Source: Candidatus Babeliales bacterium (GTDB lineage: Bacteria; Babelota; Babeliae; Babelales; Vermiphilaceae). Taken from it: a DNA stretch of 24,952 nucleotides. Below are positions 589-24,952 of the stretch, piece after piece. The notes below the pieces were generated by a model that was not told the origin of the DNA, did no database searches, and was given only the letters and a program-made list of their open reading frames with translations. The translations under genes were made by a program, and so were the position numbers. The stretch lies in the NCBI GenBank assembly GCA_044451405.1, contig JBIOKB010000014.1:1-24952 (forward strand), written 5' to 3'. Every line of letters starts with the position of its first letter. Position 1 is the stretch's first letter.

Positions 589-607
589 ATGGAGTCTTTC
601 ATGATCT
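589..607 (+). repeat. 19-bp direct repeat, copy 1 (RBS + start codon block)
   Basis: ATGGAGTCTTTCATGATCT is identical to 1381-1399. Confidence 0.9.
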
Positions 608-1356
608 TAACCGTATTCCGGTCTCTTTTAGTTACCCTGGTCCTTGGCGTTCCCCTGCTTCATGCAAGCGAACAAGAATCAGAATTATTATTAGCCGTCG
701 ACAGAGGGAACCTTGTTATAGTTAAACAACTCTTGTCTCACGGAGTTAACCCTAGTTGCGCACTTATTACTTCAATTAGGTATCGCCATGGAGAATATAG
801 TTTCAATAGTCACCGTTATGCCATTATACAAGAACTTCTTGCCCACGGAGCCAATCCAAACATGCAAGATAATGAGGGGAATACAGCTCTTATAATTGCA
901 AGCGACATGTCAAAAATATCCCCTGAATATTTGGAAGTAGTAAAACTACTCCTGCATTACAAGGCAAATCCAAATATTCAAAACAATGAAGGAAATACAG
1001 CTCTTCTACGTGCCGTATACAGAAGTGATCGTTACAACTGCGATGTGGTTAAGTTGCTTCTTGAACATGGCGCTAATCCTCATATAAAAAATAATAAAAG
1101 AAAAACTGCCATTGACTATGTTACCTATACATATCGTAGCCCCGTAAAACATAAAATAAGTAGCTTTGGTGGAAATGTTGTTGGAGCAACAGCATCACTC
1201 TTTGCATGCGGTGTTCCACTGTGGGGGTTTGGTGATGATATGCATAGAAAAAGCACGAATTCTGAAGCAATAAAAAACAAGCGTACTATTCTCAAATTAC
1301 TCAAGAAACGTGGCGTGAAGCTTACTCGCTGGCAACAATTTACATGGAAAGTGTAA
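601..1356 (+). CDS. Ankyrin repeat protein with N-terminal signal peptide
   Basis: Repeated ankyrin motifs (LLAHGANPNMQDNEGNTALIIA, LLHYKANPNIQNNEGNTALLRA, LLEHGANPHIKNNKRKTAIDY) and a hydrophobic N-terminus ending LHA-S. GGAG at 591-594 favours ATG 601 over ATG 589. Confidence 0.92.
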   Translation: MILTVFRSLLVTLVLGVPLLHASEQESELLLAVDRGNLVIVKQLLSHGVNPSCALITSIRYRHGEYSFNSHRYAIIQELLAHGANPNMQDNEGNTALIIASDMSKISPEYLEVVKLLLHYKANPNIQNNEGNTALLRAVYRSDRYNCDVVKLLLEHGANPHIKNNKRKTAIDYVTYTYRSPVKHKISSFGGNVVGATASLFACGVPLWGFGDDMHRKSTNSEAIKNKRTILKLLKKRGVKLTRWQQFTWKV

Positions 1357-5277: not shown

Positions 5278-5721
5278 TTACTCAGGAAGAATCTGCAATT
5301 TGAGTGTAGGTTGTAATTTTGATGAAAGTTTAATGGTAACATCATACGTACCAGTTGTTTTAATCATTTTGCCAAATTCGATCTGATTTTTTGCAACTGA
5401 CACCCCTTTTTCTGCTAACAGTTCAACCACTTCACTCGCATTGATTGAGCCGTATAACCGTCCATCATCATGGATTTTGCGCTTAAGTGTCAGTTTTAAT
5501 GTTTTGATTTTTTCAGCAAGCATAGAGGTTTGTGTGGCAATAGTTTCTTGGCGCTTTTCAACCGTTCTAATCTTTTTTTGTAATGATGCTTCATTGTTTG
5601 GAGTAACTTCAACAGCAAGCTTGTGTGCAACTAAAAAGTTAACGCCGTAGCCGTCTGAAACTTTAACAATTTCCCCTTCCATACCCACTTTTTCAACATT
5701 CTTGAGTAAAAATACTTTCAT
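5278..5721 (-). CDS. rplI: 50S ribosomal protein L9
   Basis: MKVFLLKNVEKVG...VSDGYGVNFL and GRLYGSI. Start placed at 5721 (AAAGGG RBS), giving 147 aa. Confidence 0.96.
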   Translation of the reverse strand: MKVFLLKNVEKVGMEGEIVKVSDGYGVNFLVAHKLAVEVTPNNEASLQKKIRTVEKRQETIATQTSMLAEKIKTLKLTLKRKIHDDGRLYGSINASEVVELLAEKGVSVAKNQIEFGKMIKTTGTYDVTIKLSSKLQPTLKLQILPE

Positions 5722-5845
5722 AGGAACCCTTTCTGTGTACACATACTTCTTATGTACCATGGTAGTATACTCTAAATTTACGGTAGTTAAAGCCAGTCTT
5801 TGCCTTAGAGAATAACTGCGAAGTTTTATTGGGTTACGTCTGGTT

Positions 5846-7213
5846 TCACCATTCATTACCTAACTTGTCTATATACGCTCCATAGGTATAACTACTATAG
5901 ATAACGTCCTGCGATTGCTCACATGCAGTATACCGGGCAAACAAATACATAAGACGTTTAATGTAGGTACACGAAAACCAACTGTCATTAACCAGCGCAA
6001 GAACCGGGTACGGTAGATTGCGCGCATAGGCATCAAAGAAAAATTCAGAGCATAGAGCAGGGCACACTAAAAAATCAGGTGTTAAGGGTATGACATAGGG
6101 AGATTCTTTTGCTGAAAATCCGCATTTGTTTTTTAAAAAAAGCGTTCGCGTACAGGTAAGCAAACTCCATGGAAAAGGAACATACTCGGTAAATGGCATG
6201 CGGCAATTTTTGACATAATTAAAAATTACGCGACATTCTTTGATGCCATAGATACCGTTATACAAATTCCCTTTTTCTTTATAATAGGATCCTAAAACAA
6301 GCTGCTGCCCTTTATCTAACGCATTAATACTCCACAGATCAATGACATTTTCATGTGTATTAAGTTCAAATGGATAACTGGATTCGGGCAGTATAATAAT
6401 CTGCGTCTCTGGTTTATCGGCACACACCTGCATGATGCAGGCGTTAATATCCTGCGCTCGATCACGTGGGTGCATGGCGCCATAGGGTACCGGCGGGATC
6501 ACGGTAGCACAGATACGCACTAACGGCGGTTCAGGAATGTGTGTTGACGGCACAACCCACCCAATGCCAAAGGGAAGCAGCCCAGCAACACTCAGTACAA
6601 GCGCCATCTGTTGCTTACTCAGGCAATAGTAAGCAACTCCCATCGCGCTCACCAGTAAACAGACCAACAATCCTGCTGATGTTAGGTAGGGCAGAGCACC
6701 AAGACAGTGCGGATATTCGGCTAACACTAGTACTGGTAATGCCAGCGGATATCCGGTTGATAATCCGATAATCCAGAGTGATGCGTAGCGCATACTAAGA
6801 TAATAGAAACACACACAAAAAACCCAGATGCCAGCACCAACTTCTCTACTCTTGCCTCTACTCAAATGCGCTGCTCCATAAAACACTACAGCACTATACA
6901 GCGCACAATATATAACAAGCATGAGCGGAACGAGCATGCGAAAGGCGCCATAGCCATGCTCATACACCATCCAAAAGAGTGCATACAACTGCCCGCTCCA
7001 ACACAACAATCCCCACCAGAATCCATGCCAGAAGGTAAGACGATGCATTAATGCGGCATAAAAAAGCGGGACATAGGCAATAAACACAAGCCAACACAAA
7101 GAATGGGGGAAATAGAGTGGGATGGTGAGCAGCACTGCAGATAGAGTAACTAATGCAGTAGCATTACGACTTAACCGTTGACCATGCGGTAATAACTGCG
7201 CGCGTATCATCAT
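5846..7213 (-). CDS. lnt: Apolipoprotein N-acyltransferase (divergent, short C-terminus)
   Basis: Multi-TM N-terminus plus nitrilase-fold triad: LPES (Glu), YVKNCRMPFTEYVP (Lys), LCSE (Cys). VNDSWF corresponds to Lnt TNDAWF. Confidence 0.85.
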   Translation of the reverse strand: MMIRAQLLPHGQRLSRNATALVTLSAVLLTIPLYFPHSLCWLVFIAYVPLFYAALMHRLTFWHGFWWGLLCWSGQLYALFWMVYEHGYGAFRMLVPLMLVIYCALYSAVVFYGAAHLSRGKSREVGAGIWVFCVCFYYLSMRYASLWIIGLSTGYPLALPVLVLAEYPHCLGALPYLTSAGLLVCLLVSAMGVAYYCLSKQQMALVLSVAGLLPFGIGWVVPSTHIPEPPLVRICATVIPPVPYGAMHPRDRAQDINACIMQVCADKPETQIIILPESSYPFELNTHENVIDLWSINALDKGQQLVLGSYYKEKGNLYNGIYGIKECRVIFNYVKNCRMPFTEYVPFPWSLLTCTRTLFLKNKCGFSAKESPYVIPLTPDFLVCPALCSEFFFDAYARNLPYPVLALVNDSWFSCTYIKRLMYLFARYTACEQSQDVIYSSYTYGAYIDKLGNEW

Positions 7214-7619
7214 TACTATCTCCCGCTACTTCAGGTACATGCAACGTACACATAAGAGAACATACTTCGTGATTATCTACCTGCAATGCACTGCGTATCT
7301 GTATGTAGGTTGGCGTCTCTGCCGTAATAGTAATAGTACCACATCCAAAGATAGTATCGGTGATGGGCCATTGAGGTAACGTAATAACTGCCTGCTTGCC
7401 ACGATCGCGTATTATGCGGTCTTTATTATAGGAAGCTATGGTGCATCCACACAACAGTAACCCTTCTGTAGCGTAGCGCTGCTGATAATAGATTTCTTTG
7501 CTACGCACAACATCACTGAGTAACCAGGTATGTTGCCACACACTAAAACTTGCTATGATACCCGCTGATAACAGTACTAATACGGCAACTAATGCTGAGC
7601 CATGCACGCAATTGTTCAC
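7164..7619 (-). CDS. PilX/GspK-like minor (pseudo)pilin
   Basis: Class III-like leader G|SALVAVLVLL without Glu5. It is the last of three coupled pilin-like genes, with a GTGA start/stop overlap. Confidence 0.65.
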   Translation of the reverse strand: MNNCVHGSALVAVLVLLSAGIIASFSVWQHTWLLSDVVRSKEIYYQQRYATEGLLLCGCTIASYNKDRIIRDRGKQAVITLPQWPITDTIFGCGTITITAETPTYIQIRSALQVDNHEVCSLMCTLHVPEVAGDSNDDTRAVITAWSTVKS

Positions 7620-8113
7620 ACCACCCTCCCTACTCTGAGTGCGACATACCGTGTAACTGAACTATCGTCCCCTGCAATTTCACACGTTACTGCGCATATC
7701 GTGTCTGACGCATGCAAAGACGGTATCAGCGTACATGCCCATGCAGTAACGCCAGTTGACATAACACTGATAGTGCGCTGTGTCCATCGCTGTGAATTTC
7801 TATCATACGTACCAGTTACACGCATTAACTTTTTCTCTTTCACCAGCCAGCACATATCCGTTGTGCCACATCGAAATAGTATCGTATGCACATCTGGTTG
7901 ATACCACGTATCACGCGCATCGGATGCCTCATATACATCATGGGCAAACACATCACATGCGGTTGAGAGCATAGACATCTCATGCAATGAATGGTGTGCG
8001 CGTACTACACTGCTATAGGTATACATCAATGCTGTGGTGGTACATCCTATAATAAGCGTCACAATCCCGATATAGAGTAAGAATTCGATAATTGAAAAAC
8101 CAGGTATCTTCAT
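7616..8113 (-). CDS. Type IV prepilin-like protein (PilW/GspJ-like)
   Basis: MKIPG|FSIIEFLLYIGI prepilin cleavage motif. Start at 8113 overlaps the upstream stop (ATGA). Confidence 0.8.
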   Translation of the reverse strand: MKIPGFSIIEFLLYIGIVTLIIGCTTTALMYTYSSVVRAHHSLHEMSMLSTACDVFAHDVYEASDARDTWYQPDVHTILFRCGTTDMCWLVKEKKLMRVTGTYDRNSQRWTQRTISVMSTGVTAWACTLIPSLHASDTICAVTCEIAGDDSSVTRYVALRVGRVV

Positions 8114-8448
8114 CGCCCTGTCCAACTGCACAGCACCATACTCTGTGCACGCACGAGCACAGAGTGTGCCAACGGTGGTAGTACCAGATCAATGCCCGTG
8201 CACAGCGGCGATGTGAGTAGCGGAATTTTTTGTACCGTGCACGCTGCATGCGTGTGTGCGATACTTCCACTTAATACCCCTTCCATGGTTTCAAGCGCAC
8301 ACGATAATGCGTAAGAACGATTTCGTATGTCAGCACGTAATGTTGCCGCTTTTCCTAGATACAACACCATAATTGAACTCAATATGATACTCATAAGTAC
8401 CGCTATGGTTGCTTCCATGAGTAAAAATCCGGGGAGTATCTGTTTCAT
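8110..8448 (-). CDS. Type IV prepilin-like protein (PilV/GspI-like)
   Basis: MKQILPG|FLLMEATIAVL motif (G-1, F+1, E+5); GGGGA RBS. Confidence 0.8.
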   Translation of the reverse strand: MKQILPGFLLMEATIAVLMSIILSSIMVLYLGKAATLRADIRNRSYALSCALETMEGVLSGSIAHTHAACTVQKIPLLTSPLCTGIDLVLPPLAHSVLVRAQSMVLCSWTGR

Positions 8449-20246: not shown

Positions 20247-20885
20247 TCACGGTATCGTAAAACCAAACCCTACATTCGCTGGATTTTCTTCATCATAGAC
20301 TGCGTTAAAGTTAGAATTTGGGTAGCCATAAAAGACGTTATCCCACGTTTGCTCATTAAGTCCTTGGTAATAGGCTTCCTGTTTATATTCCACACGAAGA
20401 TCAATTGCATGTCCTAAATGGCGCTCAATAAAGGCATGGAGTTGTTCAGGCGTTGCTGAACCAGACAGCACCGCGATACCGCCATTTTTAGCATGCACCG
20501 GCACCCCATGTTTAAATAACATAAAAGTTGGAAATTTTTTAATACCATACTCATTGGCAACGGCATCAAGACCTCTGTAGGCAACGTTCACTTTAATAAA
20601 CATGAGATCAGCTTTGTGATACTGCTTATTGTGTCTGGTTGTGTTTATAGTCCGTTGCGCGTTTTTATTTGTATGCACTTGGATATGACATGCCGCTTGT
20701 GGATGTTTTTTAGAACAGGTTACCAACTGTTTATCTTGATCGTAGAAAAAAACTACCGAAAATGGCTGTTGTTTTAACAGGCTATGAAACGTTGATGCAG
20801 AGCGCACTGCTTTATGCGGCGCACTACCCACACTCAGCGTAGGTATACACAATAATAGGCCTACTACTATACTGTATTTTTTCAT
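20247..20885 (-). CDS. Secreted thioredoxin-fold protein lacking CxxC
   Basis: Signal peptide, then FSVVFFY, FIKVNV and YGIKKFPTFMLFKHG thioredoxin-fold segments. TAATG coupling to the upstream hydrolase. Confidence 0.75.
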   Translation of the reverse strand: MKKYSIVVGLLLCIPTLSVGSAPHKAVRSASTFHSLLKQQPFSVVFFYDQDKQLVTCSKKHPQAACHIQVHTNKNAQRTINTTRHNKQYHKADLMFIKVNVAYRGLDAVANEYGIKKFPTFMLFKHGVPVHAKNGGIAVLSGSATPEQLHAFIERHLGHAIDLRVEYKQEAYYQGLNEQTWDNVFYGYPNSNFNAVYDEENPANVGFGFTIP

Positions 20886-21973
20886 TACCCTCTCCTTTGT
20901 TCGTGAAGTATCTCTTCAATATCTTCAACAATTTCTTGCTTTTGCGTGGTATATAACGTTCCTTGCAATGCTAGATCTAAAAAATTACGTACCGTCTCGG
21001 TATATTTCTCAGGATTATAAAAGTAGGAATCAAAATGCCAGCGTCCGTTGGTTAACCATAACTTTTTATAGCTTGCTGCTGAATTGTTATAGATTGCTTT
21101 TATACCTTCTATAGATACTCGCTTATCTTTTTTACATGATATAAAGAGCGATGGCACTGATACTTTACTCACCGTTTTCACCGGCGTTACAGGACACATG
21201 TGCGTAGTAATATTACGCGGGTCCATTTGGGCCACCGTTTTAAGAATAATCTTAACTAATGATTGCACATATGGATGGAATGCATATTTATTTAATAGTT
21301 CTCGTCCAGGAATATTAATTTCATAGCCTAATATTGAAAATTTTACATCATCCAGGCCACGACGTAATACATTTTCCATAGTGTCAAACGGACAATCAAG
21401 AATCATTGCTTTAAATAGTGAAGGATCTTTAGCTTGCGCTTCAATAGCAGCTACCGCTCCCATGGAAAAGCCATACACAAAAATTGGTGCATCTTTTACC
21501 TGAGGATGGTTCTTAATAAAATGTGCTGCAGCCAGTACATCATATGCTTCATCACGGCCAAAGGTACAACATTGCCCTCGCGTATTTTCTCCATGAGCCC
21601 TAAAATCAAAACTCAACACGTTAAATTTGCCTGCCGGAAACATACCACGCAGGATACCTTGGTCATATTTATCACACATAAAGCCATGGCACATAACTAC
21701 CGTACCCACCGCATCGGGATAACGAATTAAAAGGCCGCTCCGTTCTATTTTTTTATCTGATTGGGAGTTTTCCTGAGAAAATAGGGTAACTTTTTCTGCG
21801 ACAGCACCGTTAATATAGGTGGGATCACTATGGACTGTAGTGCCGTAGGGATTAACCGGGGGGGGTAATTGGCTTGCCTTCAGGAGGGGCATGACAAAGC
21901 TGCTGCTCATAAGCAACAGACAAAGCATGTTAAGTTTATAACCCCCGAGCATGACAGCTCCCTTATATAGCAT
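20885..21973 (-). CDS. Alpha/beta hydrolase, probably secreted (start uncertain)
   Basis: CHGF, FDFRAHGE, GFSMG nucleophile elbow, with candidate Asp (KKDKRV) and His (GRWHF). Confidence 0.9.
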   Translation of the reverse strand: MLYKGAVMLGGYKLNMLCLLLMSSSFVMPLLKASQLPPPVNPYGTTVHSDPTYINGAVAEKVTLFSQENSQSDKKIERSGLLIRYPDAVGTVVMCHGFMCDKYDQGILRGMFPAGKFNVLSFDFRAHGENTRGQCCTFGRDEAYDVLAAAHFIKNHPQVKDAPIFVYGFSMGAVAAIEAQAKDPSLFKAMILDCPFDTMENVLRRGLDDVKFSILGYEINIPGRELLNKYAFHPYVQSLVKIILKTVAQMDPRNITTHMCPVTPVKTVSKVSVPSLFISCKKDKRVSIEGIKAIYNNSAASYKKLWLTNGRWHFDSYFYNPEKYTETVRNFLDLALQGTLYTTQKQEIVEDIEEILHEQRRG

Positions 21974-22148: not shown

Positions 22149-23237
22149 ATGAACGTTATATATCGCTACTTCCATGCCCATTCACTGCTCCTTGCCGGCA
22201 TGCTCACCCTTACTGCACATGCAGATTCTTTTTTTGATACCCCAGGAACCAAGCAAACCTCCTACGTATATTGTCCCGGATTGTTAGGAAGCCCGGTAGT
22301 TATGGGCCGTTATTGCCCCTCATTTATGGCCCCCACTCATGAAGAAATTACCTGGGAACATGGTGGCCATGTTATTGATCACCCCTATAGCGCGGTTACG
22401 TTTGCTGAAATCGTTACAGAAAAACCTCGCTTTTGTTATAACCCCCTTACCTGGCCAACCAATGGATTTCGTTCTATAGCCTATCCTATTGCCAAAGCTA
22501 TCGGTAAAAAACGGTATGGATTACAGATTACCGAACATGAGCATACTGCAACCTCAATTGCTCACTATTTTTTTGATATAAGCGCGATAAATATTGGCCA
22601 AGATCATGATGTTGAACTTCTTAATACTACCCTTACCCAGCACCGCCTCTGCCATCCACATACCCATATTGTGCTGTATGGTGATTCACGGGGTGCTGCC
22701 ACCATTATCAATTTTCTTGGACTCGACTACGATTACACCAACATTAAAGCAGTCGTTCTTGAAGGTATATTTGATTCTATTGACCATCTTTTAACCCACT
22801 ATCGCGCATCTAAAATACCTGGCATGAAACGGGCACTCCATGCCACACTCAAAGCATGTGCAGGAACCTATAAAGAAGATGGGGTGTTTCCTCGCGATAC
22901 TATTACCAAGATACCAGCTCATATTCCGATACTCTTTGTAACATCACTTAACGATGAAATTGTCCCCTATCAATGCACCATGCGTTTATACAACACCATA
23001 CAAGAACGCCCTAACGCGCATCTACTGGTACTCAAAAAAGCAAACCATATGGATTATATGTATCATGAAAAAGAGAGGTATGAATCAGTCGTCCATGCAT
23101 TTTATAAAGAGTATGGTGTGGCTTATAACACACAAAAAGCCAAGCGTGGCACCAAAACATTTGCCACAACACGGCCTACAAAAGACTATCTGCGCACAAC
23201 CTATCATCTTCATGATGCATGCTGTGCGCAGATATAG
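22149..23237 (+). CDS. Alpha/beta hydrolase with signal peptide
   Basis: Signal ending AHA-D, YGDSRGA nucleophile elbow, AVVLEGIFD, NDEIVP (Asp) and ANH (His). Confidence 0.88.
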   Translation: MNVIYRYFHAHSLLLAGMLTLTAHADSFFDTPGTKQTSYVYCPGLLGSPVVMGRYCPSFMAPTHEEITWEHGGHVIDHPYSAVTFAEIVTEKPRFCYNPLTWPTNGFRSIAYPIAKAIGKKRYGLQITEHEHTATSIAHYFFDISAINIGQDHDVELLNTTLTQHRLCHPHTHIVLYGDSRGAATIINFLGLDYDYTNIKAVVLEGIFDSIDHLLTHYRASKIPGMKRALHATLKACAGTYKEDGVFPRDTITKIPAHIPILFVTSLNDEIVPYQCTMRLYNTIQERPNAHLLVLKKANHMDYMYHEKERYESVVHAFYKEYGVAYNTQKAKRGTKTFATTRPTKDYLRTTYHLHDACCAQI

Positions 23238-23256: not shown

Positions 23257-24696
23257 TTATTTTGCTTGTTCTGCCGTTATAAATTGGCTTACAAAATCCT
23301 TTAATTCCTGTCTATTCATAGTCTCATGATAGCGCGCTAGAAGCGTATCTTTTTTAACCACTACAAGACACGGCACTTTATATACAAAGAACTTTTGAGC
23401 AAGATCAACTGCTTGTTCAGCATTCACCTTAAAGAACTGTGCTTTACCGATAAATTCTCCCGCTACTGATGCCACAAGCGGCATCATCTGCAAGCAGGTA
23501 GGACACGTATCGGTATAAAAATCTAAGACAACAAGTGCATCAGTTGATTGGGTAATCTTGCCAAGATCAGCTAAAGATCCAAGAGAAGGAAGTTCTTCGA
23601 TTTTAAGTTCTTCAACCTGCAACGCGCCTTTAAATTGAGATGCCATTGATGGCGTAAAGCCTAGTTCAGTTAAAAAGTTAACTGCATCAAGTGCCGCACT
23701 TGCTCCCCGCCCTGCTGATACAATTGCCTGACGATAGCGATTATCTTCTACTTCTCCGGCAGCAAAAACTCCCGTAATACTGGTTTCTTGTGTTTTACCC
23801 TTGGTAAGAATGTAGCCATTATCATCGGTGGTCACTGAACCCTTCACGAGAAGAGAATTTGGCGTATGCCCTATGGCCAAGAATAACCCGCTGACGGCCA
23901 TATGATTTACTTCATTGGTTGTGGCATCAAGCAGTTCAATACCGGTGACATGATGTTCATCACCCATAACTTTTTGTACCTGGACGTTATAGCGTATGGT
24001 AATAGTTGGATAGCCTTTAAGCCGTTGCTGCATACGGGCAGCGGCACGCATTTTGTCTTTACGCACTAGAATAGTAACACTCTTTGCATATTGGGCTAAT
24101 TGAATAGCTTCTTCAATGGCAGAATCACCGCCACCTACTACCACCACGTCCTCATTTTTATAAAAGGCAGCATCACACACGGCACAGGTTCCCACCCCTC
24201 TTCCCCAATATTCCTGCTCTCCTGGGATACCTAAGGTAAAAGGTGTAGCGCCCGTTGCCAGAATGATAGATAAGGCATGGAGCTCTTTGCCGTTATCAGT
24301 TTCAATTGTGTAGGGCCATGAAGAGAAATCAATATTAAGAACCGTATCGTGCATAAATTCTACCCCCAATTTCTGAGCATGCTTTTCCATGTTGCCAATA
24401 AGATTGGGTCCCATAATCAGTTGCTCACCCGGCCAATTTTCTACATCGGTTGTTTGGGTTAATAATCCTCCTGGCAACGGCCCTTTAATAACAACCGTTT
24501 TAATCATGCTCCGCGCTCCATAAATGGCAGCCGGCAACCCCGCTGACCCTGAACCAATGATGACCAGCGGCACTACGTTTTGGAAACCCAAGGCTTTTTG
24601 AAGATCAAAGGAGTGTTCAGCCCGCGTCCACATGCACCCTTGCATCAGAAGCAATGAACTTATTAATAACCCACCCATAAGCATGCGTGAAACCAT
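23257..24696 (-). CDS. trxB: Thioredoxin reductase fused to a C-terminal thioredoxin domain, with lipoprotein-like signal peptide
   Basis: IIGSGSAG, VENWPG, ILATGA, CAVC active site, VVGGGDSA, FLAIGH and C-terminal VVLDFYTDTCPTC. ATG 24696 has an AAAGGG RBS and gives 479 aa. Confidence 0.92.
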   Translation of the reverse strand: MVSRMLMGGLLISSLLLMQGCMWTRAEHSFDLQKALGFQNVVPLVIIGSGSAGLPAAIYGARSMIKTVVIKGPLPGGLLTQTTDVENWPGEQLIMGPNLIGNMEKHAQKLGVEFMHDTVLNIDFSSWPYTIETDNGKELHALSIILATGATPFTLGIPGEQEYWGRGVGTCAVCDAAFYKNEDVVVVGGGDSAIEEAIQLAQYAKSVTILVRKDKMRAAARMQQRLKGYPTITIRYNVQVQKVMGDEHHVTGIELLDATTNEVNHMAVSGLFLAIGHTPNSLLVKGSVTTDDNGYILTKGKTQETSITGVFAAGEVEDNRYRQAIVSAGRGASAALDAVNFLTELGFTPSMASQFKGALQVEELKIEELPSLGSLADLGKITQSTDALVVLDFYTDTCPTCLQMMPLVASVAGEFIGKAQFFKVNAEQAVDLAQKFFVYKVPCLVVVKKDTLLARYHETMNRQELKDFVSQFITAEQAK

Positions 24697-24774
24697 ATAT
24701 TTCCCTTTGGTAGTTAGCCTGTCATTTCCCGCTAAAATAGTGTGCTTCATGCACACCAATGATGGGCAGGCATA

Positions 24775-24803
24775 TCGACAAACATGATAGACCAGTTTAT
24801 ACT
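24775..24803 (+). promoter_or_regulatory. sigma70-type promoter
   Basis: TCGACA, 17-nt spacer, TATACT. Similar to the 538-565 promoter. Confidence 0.6.
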
Positions 24804-24866
24804 CATCTTAATTCTTTATGTATTATCGTTCTATTTGTTTTCTCTTTAATGGAAGTCTTATCTCAT

Positions 24867-24952
24867 ATGAAAATATCAAATGGTAAAAAAATACTACTCG
24901 TCGTATTAATTGGTTCTGTCAGTATAACCAATCTTGGGTTAATCGCCAATGA
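24867..24952 (+). CDS. 5' end of a probable secreted protein, truncated by the window edge
   Basis: MKISNGKKILLVVLIGSVSITNLGLIAN..., open to the window end, with an alternative in-frame ATG at 24849. Confidence 0.6.
   Translation, partial: MKISNGKKILLVVLIGSVSITNLGLIAN

Follow-up and report, generated by a model that had tools for sequence, protein, structure and literature searches.

A thioredoxin reductase-thioredoxin fusion with a lipoprotein-type leader in Candidatus Dependentiae: a putative NTRC-like enzyme tethered outside the cytoplasm

The stretch of DNA analyzed here (the window; 24,952 nucleotides, contig C14, JBIOKB010000014.1 of assembly GCA_044451405.1) belongs to a 1.02-Mb metagenome-assembled genome (MAG) of Candidatus Dependentiae (TM6) that consists of 89 contigs and is 95.7% complete. 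It carries a gene in which a thioredoxin reductase (TrxR) is fused to a thioredoxin (Trx). We posit with moderate confidence, from its sequence features, that the product is an NTRC-like TrxR/Trx enzyme that is tethered outside the cytoplasm by a Sec-type lipoprotein signal and probably fed by NADPH and FAD of the host. A sequence-only reading of the window had placed a lipoprotein-type leader, a full TrxB (CAVC, GGGDSA) and a Trx domain with a CPTC motif at 23257-24696, and our analysis recovered all of them there. Our computations show the domain architecture, the conserved catalytic and cofactor motifs, the conserved leader, the presence of machinery for export and lipidation, and a second TrxB that has no leader. 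The features of the gene are as follows:

23257..24696, minus strand: whole fusion gene, 479 aa (leader, TrxR, linker and Trx), stop codon included (open reading frame, Pfam and NCBIfam)
24702..24707, minus strand: Shine-Dalgarno (SD)-like AAGGGA with a 5-nt spacer to the ATG at 24696 (read from the sequence)
24637..24696, minus strand: leader, residues 1-20, with n-region MVSR, core MLMGGLLISSLLLM and lipobox L-M-Q-G (sequence, lipobox pattern, AlphaFold helix 2-23)
24634..24636, minus strand: TGC codon of Cys21, the putative lipidated +1 Cys (aligned column Cys in 95/119 homologs)
24568..24633, minus strand: residues 22-43, tether and short conserved FD..A...N.VP ahead of the Rossmann strand (pLDDT <50 at 23-26; alignment conservation)
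23671..24567, minus strand: low-Mr thioredoxin reductase module, residues 44-342 (profiles, structure comparison)
24175..24186, minus strand: redox-active CAVC, residues 171-174 (both Cys in 119/119 homologs)
24118..24135, minus strand: GGGDSA NAD(P)H Rossmann motif, residues 188-193 (motif conservation)
24043..24069, minus strand: LVRKDKMRA basic site, residues 210-218, putative 2'-phosphate binding of NADPH (aligns with NTRC LVRGERMRA)
23551..23670, minus strand: inter-domain linker, residues 343-382 (Pfam limits, AlphaFold)
23287..23550, minus strand: thioredoxin domain, residues 383-470 (Pfam)
23494..23505, minus strand: Trx active site CPTC, residues 398-401; family consensus CP[ST]C (motif alignment)

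The minus-strand open reading frame (ORF), 23257..24759, comprises 500 aa when counted from TTG, and a start at the ATG at 24694-24696 yields the 479-aa protein opening MVSRMLMGGLLISSLLLMQGC / MVSRMLMGGLLISSLLLMQGCMWTRAEH. The database entry of the identical protein (P0001) has 497 aa, the gene caller having taken the ATG at 24747. This upstream ATG is without an SD-like motif, and the leader is retained with either start.

Pfam places Pyr_redox_2 at residues 44-329 (E 2.5e-45) and Thioredoxin at residues 383-470 (E 1e-14). The TrxB profile TIGR01292 is covered from position 3 to 300 of 300 by residues 44-342 with 341.3 bits against a cut-off of 343.45; in the whole-genome scan the fusion scored 342.8 bits and was marked as below cut-off, which is essentially at the threshold. 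The FAD-side Rossmann motif GSGSAG is found at residues 48-53, and a Foldseek comparison matched the model to low-Mr TrxRs (TM to target up to 0.95). LVRKDKMRA occupies what we take to be the 2'-phosphate site, which reads HRRxxxR in E. coli TrxB. Both LVRK..MRA and GGGDSA are strongly conserved in the fusion family, so the enzyme is evidently selected for binding of a pyridine nucleotide, in all likelihood NADPH. TDTCPTC is the active site of the Trx domain in the window, and the most frequent motifs of the family have CP[ST]C; it resembles the CPTC of E. coli CcmG and similar periplasmic reductants.

The amino-terminus of the window protein passes a PROSITE-type lipobox rule that we coded ourselves ([LVI..][ASTG..][GAS]-C, Cys at 15-35), with R4, the core MLMGGLLISSLLLM and L-M-Q-G-C21; the Q at -2 is unusual, yet the rule as coded permits it. 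Of the 1029 crude ORFs in this genome, 27 are lipobox candidates, the fusion protein among them. In the AlphaFold model (25-sequence alignment; mean pLDDT 87.1, pTM 0.79) a lone helix at residues 2-23 is followed by a tether of low confidence (23-31), with the TrxR fold starting at residue 41 and the Trx fold after it. Genes for both lipoprotein-processing enzymes, Lgt (PF01790, 157.7 bits) and LspA (PF01252, 97.5 bits), are present, so that by sequence the window protein fits the criteria of a signal peptidase II (SPII) lipoprotein in this genome. Tat is the usual export route for cofactor-bearing enzymes. The absence of a twin-arginine motif, already remarked in the sequence-only reading, holds, as there is no RR pair within the leader, and a search for TatC, positive in 11 of 14 genomes as a control, gave no match in this 95.7%-complete genome. 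A Tat route is thus not indicated. A crude hydropathy filter assigned an N-terminal leader without a later transmembrane (TM) segment to 253 of the 1029 ORF calls (ORFs of at least 110 aa), which is in line with the signal peptides on 44% of coding sequences in Chromulinavorax in the part of that report consulted (PMC6561590).

Conservation of the leader was followed in the 120 best database homologs of the window protein. All of them join PF07992 and PF00085, with lengths of 474-527 aa except for P0005 (775 aa), and the four that have an NCBI organism name are all called 'Candidatus Dependentiae bacterium'; related loci are Babeliales MAGs. A hydrophobic N-terminus, defined as a 15-residue window of mean Kyte-Doolittle hydropathy >=1.6 ahead of the Rossmann strand, was found in 117/120, a strict lipobox in 40/120 and a relaxed one in 77/120. 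When 119 sequences were aligned with MAFFT (P0005 was dropped for its length), the four catalytic Cys of the two CxxC motifs are invariant, and the column of C21 holds Cys in 95. The flank on the N-terminal side of the hydrophobic stretch is the more positive one in 100 homologs, while 13 have equal flanks and 6 a less positive N-flank, in a count that gives +1 for a free amino terminus if the N-tail is short. In the closest relatives (88% and 84% identity) the leader persists, its substitutions being conservative. The closest, P0002 (88%), has Ala at the position of Met22 of the window protein, so that an internal start there is not conserved, and the alignment holds no conserved internal Met before the Rossmann strand. 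The leader is thus conserved in nearly all of these homologs and the Cys in most of them, by this alignment more than chance would give; the data speak against a start beyond the Cys and against a general loss of the leader among orthologs.

Across the phylum, the survey covered 201 Dependentiae genomes, counted by hand over 150 listed matches with 316 further matches beyond these. A TrxB-like gene occurs in 201/201 of the sampled genomes, and at least ~127/201 have a full-length fusion-type match among the matches listed. Also among the matches listed, some genomes have two tandem fusion copies, and several have a leader-type TrxR without a Trx domain, in frames of 370-430 aa. The families f6, f9, f10, f11, f12, f15 and f16 and the genus g2, which belongs to the window's own family, apparently have the canonical TrxB only, judging by best E-values and match counts among the matches listed. 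At three loci with two tandem fusion-type genes (L096, L098 and L112, of genomes G198, G176 and G012), the Trx motif of the second copy reads CPVC, CPIC and CVCC, which suggests paralog specialization. A motif-pattern search for further loci of the family used motifs that are generic to TrxB: 76/80 loci were ordinary TrxB genes from phyla other than this one, and L013-L016 alone belonged to the family. Three of the six long-match loci outside Dependentiae (L042, L090, L091) were rejected as fusions, being leaderless TrxB genes with a separate trxA, and at another non-Dependentiae locus (L051) the match lies in a different frame.

A comparison of 20 loci from 10 families with that of the window (21 loci) gave 25 fusion- or TrxR-type proteins, all of them with a hydrophobic N-terminus. 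Clear lipoboxes (LGAC, LVGC, LPGC, MQGC) are concentrated in family f1. The charge bias of the 25 copies, counted with no amino-terminus bonus, is N>C in 17 and N<C in 6, with 2 neutral. As the lipobox is confined mainly to f1 and the charge bias is mixed, the N-terminal membrane segment occurs phylum-wide, and the lipoprotein is the form that it takes in particular lineages. The lipoprotein claim of the earlier reading is therefore upheld for the lineage of this genome, with its C21 lipobox, but it does not extend to the other Dependentiae families, which mostly have a plain hydrophobic anchor, and the charge bias leaves the orientation of the segment ambiguous in some of the copies.

Independent predictions have been published for cultured Babela massiliensis. 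According to supplement 9 of the genome paper (PMC4378268), the fusion gene_809 (480 aa) has one TMHMM helix and no SignalP hit, while the fusion gene_827 (473 aa) and the TrxR-only gene_545 (369 aa) each have TMHMM 0 and SignalP 1, the canonical TrxB gene_980 (309 aa) scores 0 in both, and three of four small thioredoxins have SignalP 1 or 2. In what was consulted of that paper, the main text remarks on a thioredoxin reductase 'expansion', and the leader hits are tabulated without comment (PMC4378268). Secretion into the host cytoplasm is assumed in the consulted parts of both Dependentiae papers (PMC6561590; PMC4378268). The best RefSeq matches of the Babela fusions are cyanobacterial. An exported TrxR-Trx enzyme was suspected to be undescribed, and we likewise found no description of an exported or periplasmic TrxR in the literature searched for periplasmic, exported, secreted or membrane TrxR; of the matches to such wording, one concerned quinol-dependent membrane reductases and the other, by its title, fungal secreted proteins. 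In the sections of the Dependentiae literature that touch on thioredoxin reductase, the genes appear in lists only, and the only match for NTRC and Chlamydiae is off-topic by its title and abstract.

The genome encodes a second TrxB, a canonical and leaderless protein of 309 aa (TIGR01292 375.7 bits, above cut-off), along with a leaderless CGPC thioredoxin (TrxA), and the presence of a separate cytoplasmic-type trxB, a check proposed in the earlier reading, is thereby established. In this second TrxB (contig C44, 2821-3750) HILDKLTAS stands where the fusion has LVRKDKMRA, and the Arg residues of the site for the 2'-phosphate of NADPH are missing. Babela_gene_980, whose best RefSeq match is archaeal, has the HILDKLTAS string as well. 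By this motif, the leaderless cytoplasmic TrxB may use another reductant than NADPH.

Searches of the 95.7%-complete genome detected neither NAD kinase (NadK) nor the FAD-synthetase domain of RibF. It encodes three or four TLC/NTT transporters. The two missing functions suggest that NADP(H) and FAD come from the host and cross the envelope, which would make an external NADPH- and FAD-dependent enzyme less implausible here than in free-living bacteria. We dropped the stronger argument that the cytoplasm has no NADPH, since glucose-6-phosphate dehydrogenase (G6PD) is present, although NadK was not found. In the same 95.7%-complete genome no match to the DsbA family and no MsrB were found, while a homolog of vitamin K epoxide reductase (VKOR) is present. 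The only strong peroxiredoxin (contig C9, 18747-19274) is of BCP/PrxQ type by eye, with PGCTKEAC and a hydrophobic leader of ~30 residues; the other AhpC/TSA-family matches are the Trx-like domain of a DipZ-like protein and two weak ones on Trx genes. Frames like this PrxQ occur in 89/201 Dependentiae genomes in the same kind of 201-genome sample. Leaders are also found on three further Trx-domain proteins: a signal-bearing WCGPC thioredoxin of 164 aa (contig C32, 4-498) and two adjoining multi-TM thioredoxin-domain proteins with WCGPC and CSAC (contig C67, 1000-2453). Contig C17 (11699-12392) holds a leaderless thioredoxin of 100 aa with a DsbA-like CPHC, 22 nt upstream of the VKOR homolog, an odd pair if the thioredoxin is truly without a signal.

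According to our analysis, the textbook lipoprotein signal together with Lgt and LspA makes a membrane-tethered NTRC-like enzyme with its catalytic modules outside the cytoplasm the most likely reading. The fusion would cross the membrane unfolded via Sec, guided by the signal MVSR / MLMGGLLISSLLLM / QG-C21; Lgt would lipidate Cys21 and LspA would cleave, leaving both catalytic modules membrane-tethered in the periplasm or on the surface. FAD would be bound outside, and electrons would pass from NADPH via FAD and CAVC to CPTC, probably that of the partner subunit as in NTRC, and on to extracytoplasmic disulfides or peroxidases. The leader-bearing PrxQ/BCP, the signal-bearing WCGPC thioredoxin and the two multi-TM thioredoxins are candidate acceptors. 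NADPH and FAD might be supplied by the host, given that the bacterium is an obligate intracellular parasite in which NadK and FAD synthetase were not found. Export, lipidation, cofactor supply and substrates are what we infer here from the computed features.

Textbook knowledge holds that NADPH-dependent disulfide reductases are cytoplasmic and that electrons go outward by DsbD/CcdA. A TrxR-type flavoenzyme outside the cytoplasm would break this compartment rule, by a gene that is conserved in about two thirds of the sampled phylum, and host pyridine nucleotides and flavins would be used directly in the envelope of the parasite. More tentatively, and with rather less than even confidence, we suggest that Dependentiae may place a whole NADPH-dependent thioredoxin system in the periplasm or on the surface, made up of the fusion (in some cases TrxR alone), PrxQ and free thioredoxins and running on host NADPH and FAD. 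No disulfide reductase system driven by NADPH would have been seen outside a bacterial cytoplasm before, and with it the parasite might protect or remodel the thiols of its envelope, or target host proteins, while the host bears the metabolic cost. The fusion would offer a testable handle on how Dependentiae meet host oxidants or reduce envelope proteins.

Among known systems NTRC is the most similar, with the same order of low-Mr TrxR, linker and Trx within one chain. The best solved relative, 7p9d of Chlamydomonas (487 aa), aligns over both domains and has LVRGERMRA for LVRKDKMRA of the window, and in the Atlas the nearest clusters consist of TrxR+Trx proteins from cyanobacteria. The window fusion differs by its N-terminal hydrophobic/lipoprotein leader, whereas NTRC is soluble in the stroma or cytoplasm, by CP[ST]C in place of the CGPC of 7p9d, and by its occurrence in a non-photosynthetic intracellular parasite instead of oxygenic phototrophs. 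NTRC moreover reduces 2-Cys peroxiredoxin, while the sole strong AhpC/TSA match here looks like BCP/PrxQ by eye. An Atlas cluster of 184 members (464-aa TrxR+Trx) has Chlamydiota as its commonest phylum, and NTRC-like fusions may thus exist in another intracellular lineage. TrxB-TrxA of Mycobacterium leprae likewise unites TrxR and Trx in one bacterial polypeptide, but is cytoplasmic and leaderless. In AhpF a TrxR-type flavoprotein is also fused to Trx-fold domains, and TIGR03140 matches the TrxR part of the window protein with 245 bits, far under the cut-off of 502.9; the Trx-like domains of AhpF are N-terminal, however, and the protein is cytoplasmic. DsbD, CcdA-TlpA and DipZ perform the same task of bringing reducing equivalents to Trx-fold proteins outside the cytoplasm, but in these systems electrons cross the membrane from a cytoplasmic Trx, whereas the fusion would put the NADPH-oxidizing flavoenzyme itself outside. 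QSOX of eukaryotes is secreted and combines Trx and FAD modules as the fusion does, but with an Erv fold, in the oxidative direction and with no pyridine nucleotide. A precedent for a Sec-exported protein that takes up non-covalent FAD in the periplasm is FccA of Shewanella with the FAD exporter Bfe, although this enzyme is unrelated to TrxR and receives its electrons from cytochromes, not from NADPH.

Several findings weigh against an enzyme outside the cytoplasm. We found no precedent for a Sec-exported enzyme with non-covalent FAD that needs NADPH outside the cytoplasm. Our leader calls come from regular expressions of our own and from hydropathy and charge counts. Even a relaxed lipobox is missing in 43/120 homologs, and 16/77 of the relaxed lipoboxes have an atypical Q at -1. 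Many copies outside family f1 lack a lipobox; their segment resembles a plain anchor, in many cases with K/R after it and in some with juxtamembrane Cys, and the charge bias is neutral or reversed in 8/25 of the phylum-spread copies; judged by these sequences, the ancestral state may have been a plain anchor of uncertain orientation. G6PD makes cytoplasmic NADPH possible, and a 563-aa DipZ-like protein, consisting of CcdA, a TlpA-like part and a C-terminal domain, could feed the periplasm by the normal route. With regard to the exported thiol-redox system proposed in the sequence-only reading, the fusion is consequently not the sole possible source of reducing power. PrxQ was rejected as an obligate partner, as it is found in fusion-less lineages (g2 9/10, f10 10/23) and was not found in many fusion-bearing genomes. 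The block of neighboring genes includes housekeeping genes (PGK, RpiB), which makes synteny weak evidence for function.

The same findings bear on the strongest alternative, which we regard as rather unlikely: an uncleaved anchor in N-out/C-in orientation that would hold the enzyme on the cytoplasmic face, where it would pass electrons from cytoplasmic NADPH to a membrane client, for example the CcdA/DipZ-like protein or the multi-TM thioredoxins. NADPH and FAD are normally cytoplasmic, and both G6PD and a CcdA/DipZ-like acceptor are in the genome. The homologs without a relaxed lipobox fit this alternative, as do the phylum-spread copies with a more basic C-flank (6/25) or a neutral one (2), and Babela gene_809 with its single TM segment and no signal peptide in the supplement cited above (PMC4378268). 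The window leader, however, is a lipoprotein signal of textbook length with Cys at 21, a 14-residue core and a basic n-region, and the aligned Cys and the more positive N-flank recur in most homologs (95/119 and 100/119). A basic N-tail on the outside is disfavored by the positive-inside rule, the lipobox-bearing orthologs of the same family would place at least those copies outside, and small thioredoxins of the same genomes have cleavable-looking signals. If the anchor did face the cytoplasm, the protein would still be an undescribed membrane-tethered NTRC-type enzyme.

An improbable variant of the exported enzyme is a thiol oxidase or isomerase that works without external NADPH, passing electrons from a dithiol via CPTC, CAVC and FAD to O2 or another acceptor by a QSOX-like logic. 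It would suit a protein that is predicted to be extracytoplasmic, in a genome with no DsbA-family match, whose family Trx site is CP[ST]C and not CGPC, with the Pro at the first X that is typical of more oxidizing Trx-fold proteins. The strong conservation of LVRK..MRA and GGGDSA nevertheless argues that pyridine nucleotide is still bound, VKOR is available for oxidative folding, and low-Mr TrxRs are poor oxidases. We did not adopt this as our main explanation, as VKOR and the conserved NADPH site weaken it. It is very improbable that the leader is an annotation artefact and that an ordinary cytoplasmic NTRC-like enzyme starts at Met22: this Met directly follows Cys21, has AAGGG just upstream within codons 19-20 and recurs at +2 in 16/77 relaxed-lipobox homologs, but that AAGGG is spaced by only ~3 nt from ATG-22 whereas the ATG at 24696 has its well-spaced AAGGGA, P0002 has Ala at this position with no conserved internal Met before the Rossmann strand, and leader hydrophobicity survives divergence in 117/120 homologs.

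The genes around the fusion in the window are as follows:

20247..20885, minus strand: Trx-fold protein of 212 aa, conserved neighbor, leader signal-like, CxxC absent, cluster 8 (weak OST3/OST6 and Thioredoxin match; 10/21 loci)
20885..21973, minus strand: alpha/beta hydrolase with a signal-like leader, conserved downstream neighbor, cluster 2 (17/21 loci)
22149..23237, plus strand: second alpha/beta hydrolase with a signal-like leader, convergent to the fusion, cluster 16 (2/21 loci)
24759..24952, plus strand: open-ended divergent ORF with the hydrophobic leader MKISNGKKILLVVLIGS... from 24868, at the contig end (ORF)

The gene order across the 21 loci is conserved and comprises a LolC/E-like FtsX permease (15/21), RpiB (16/21), a divergent FtsH-like AAA+M41 protein of 800-950 aa (19/21), the fusion (21/21), the hydrolase, the Trx-fold protein and an M17 aminopeptidase (10/21). 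The permease side of the block also holds PGK (12/21) and a small lipoprotein. By its position alone, the ORF at 24759..24952 corresponds to the FtsH-like neighbor, a putative identity. In the window the second hydrolase is inserted on the opposite strand after the fusion gene, and the genes of the first hydrolase and the Trx-fold protein overlap by base 20885. The Trx-fold protein had been suggested as part of a thiol-redox system with the fusion. It is a conserved neighbor (10/21 loci), but without a CxxC it is not an ordinary redox partner: it has C57-x8-C66 only, and its orthologs carry at most one Cys there, for which reason we rejected it as a partner.

Elsewhere in the window, three small overlapping ORFs at 7164-8448 (minus strand) have no Pfam match, and two of them have prepilin-like N-termini (..GFSIIEFLLY.., ..PGFLLMEATIAV..); by these termini they probably encode type IV pilins or pseudopilins. 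At 5278-5856 (minus strand), the ORF for ribosomal protein L9 has ~45 residues ahead of the L9 N-domain, and its start codon has probably been called too far upstream. An ankyrin-repeat protein with a signal-like leader is encoded at 589-1356 (plus strand), a type of protein typical of the secreted-effector repertoire of Dependentiae as described in the consulted part of the Babela genome paper (PMC4378268).

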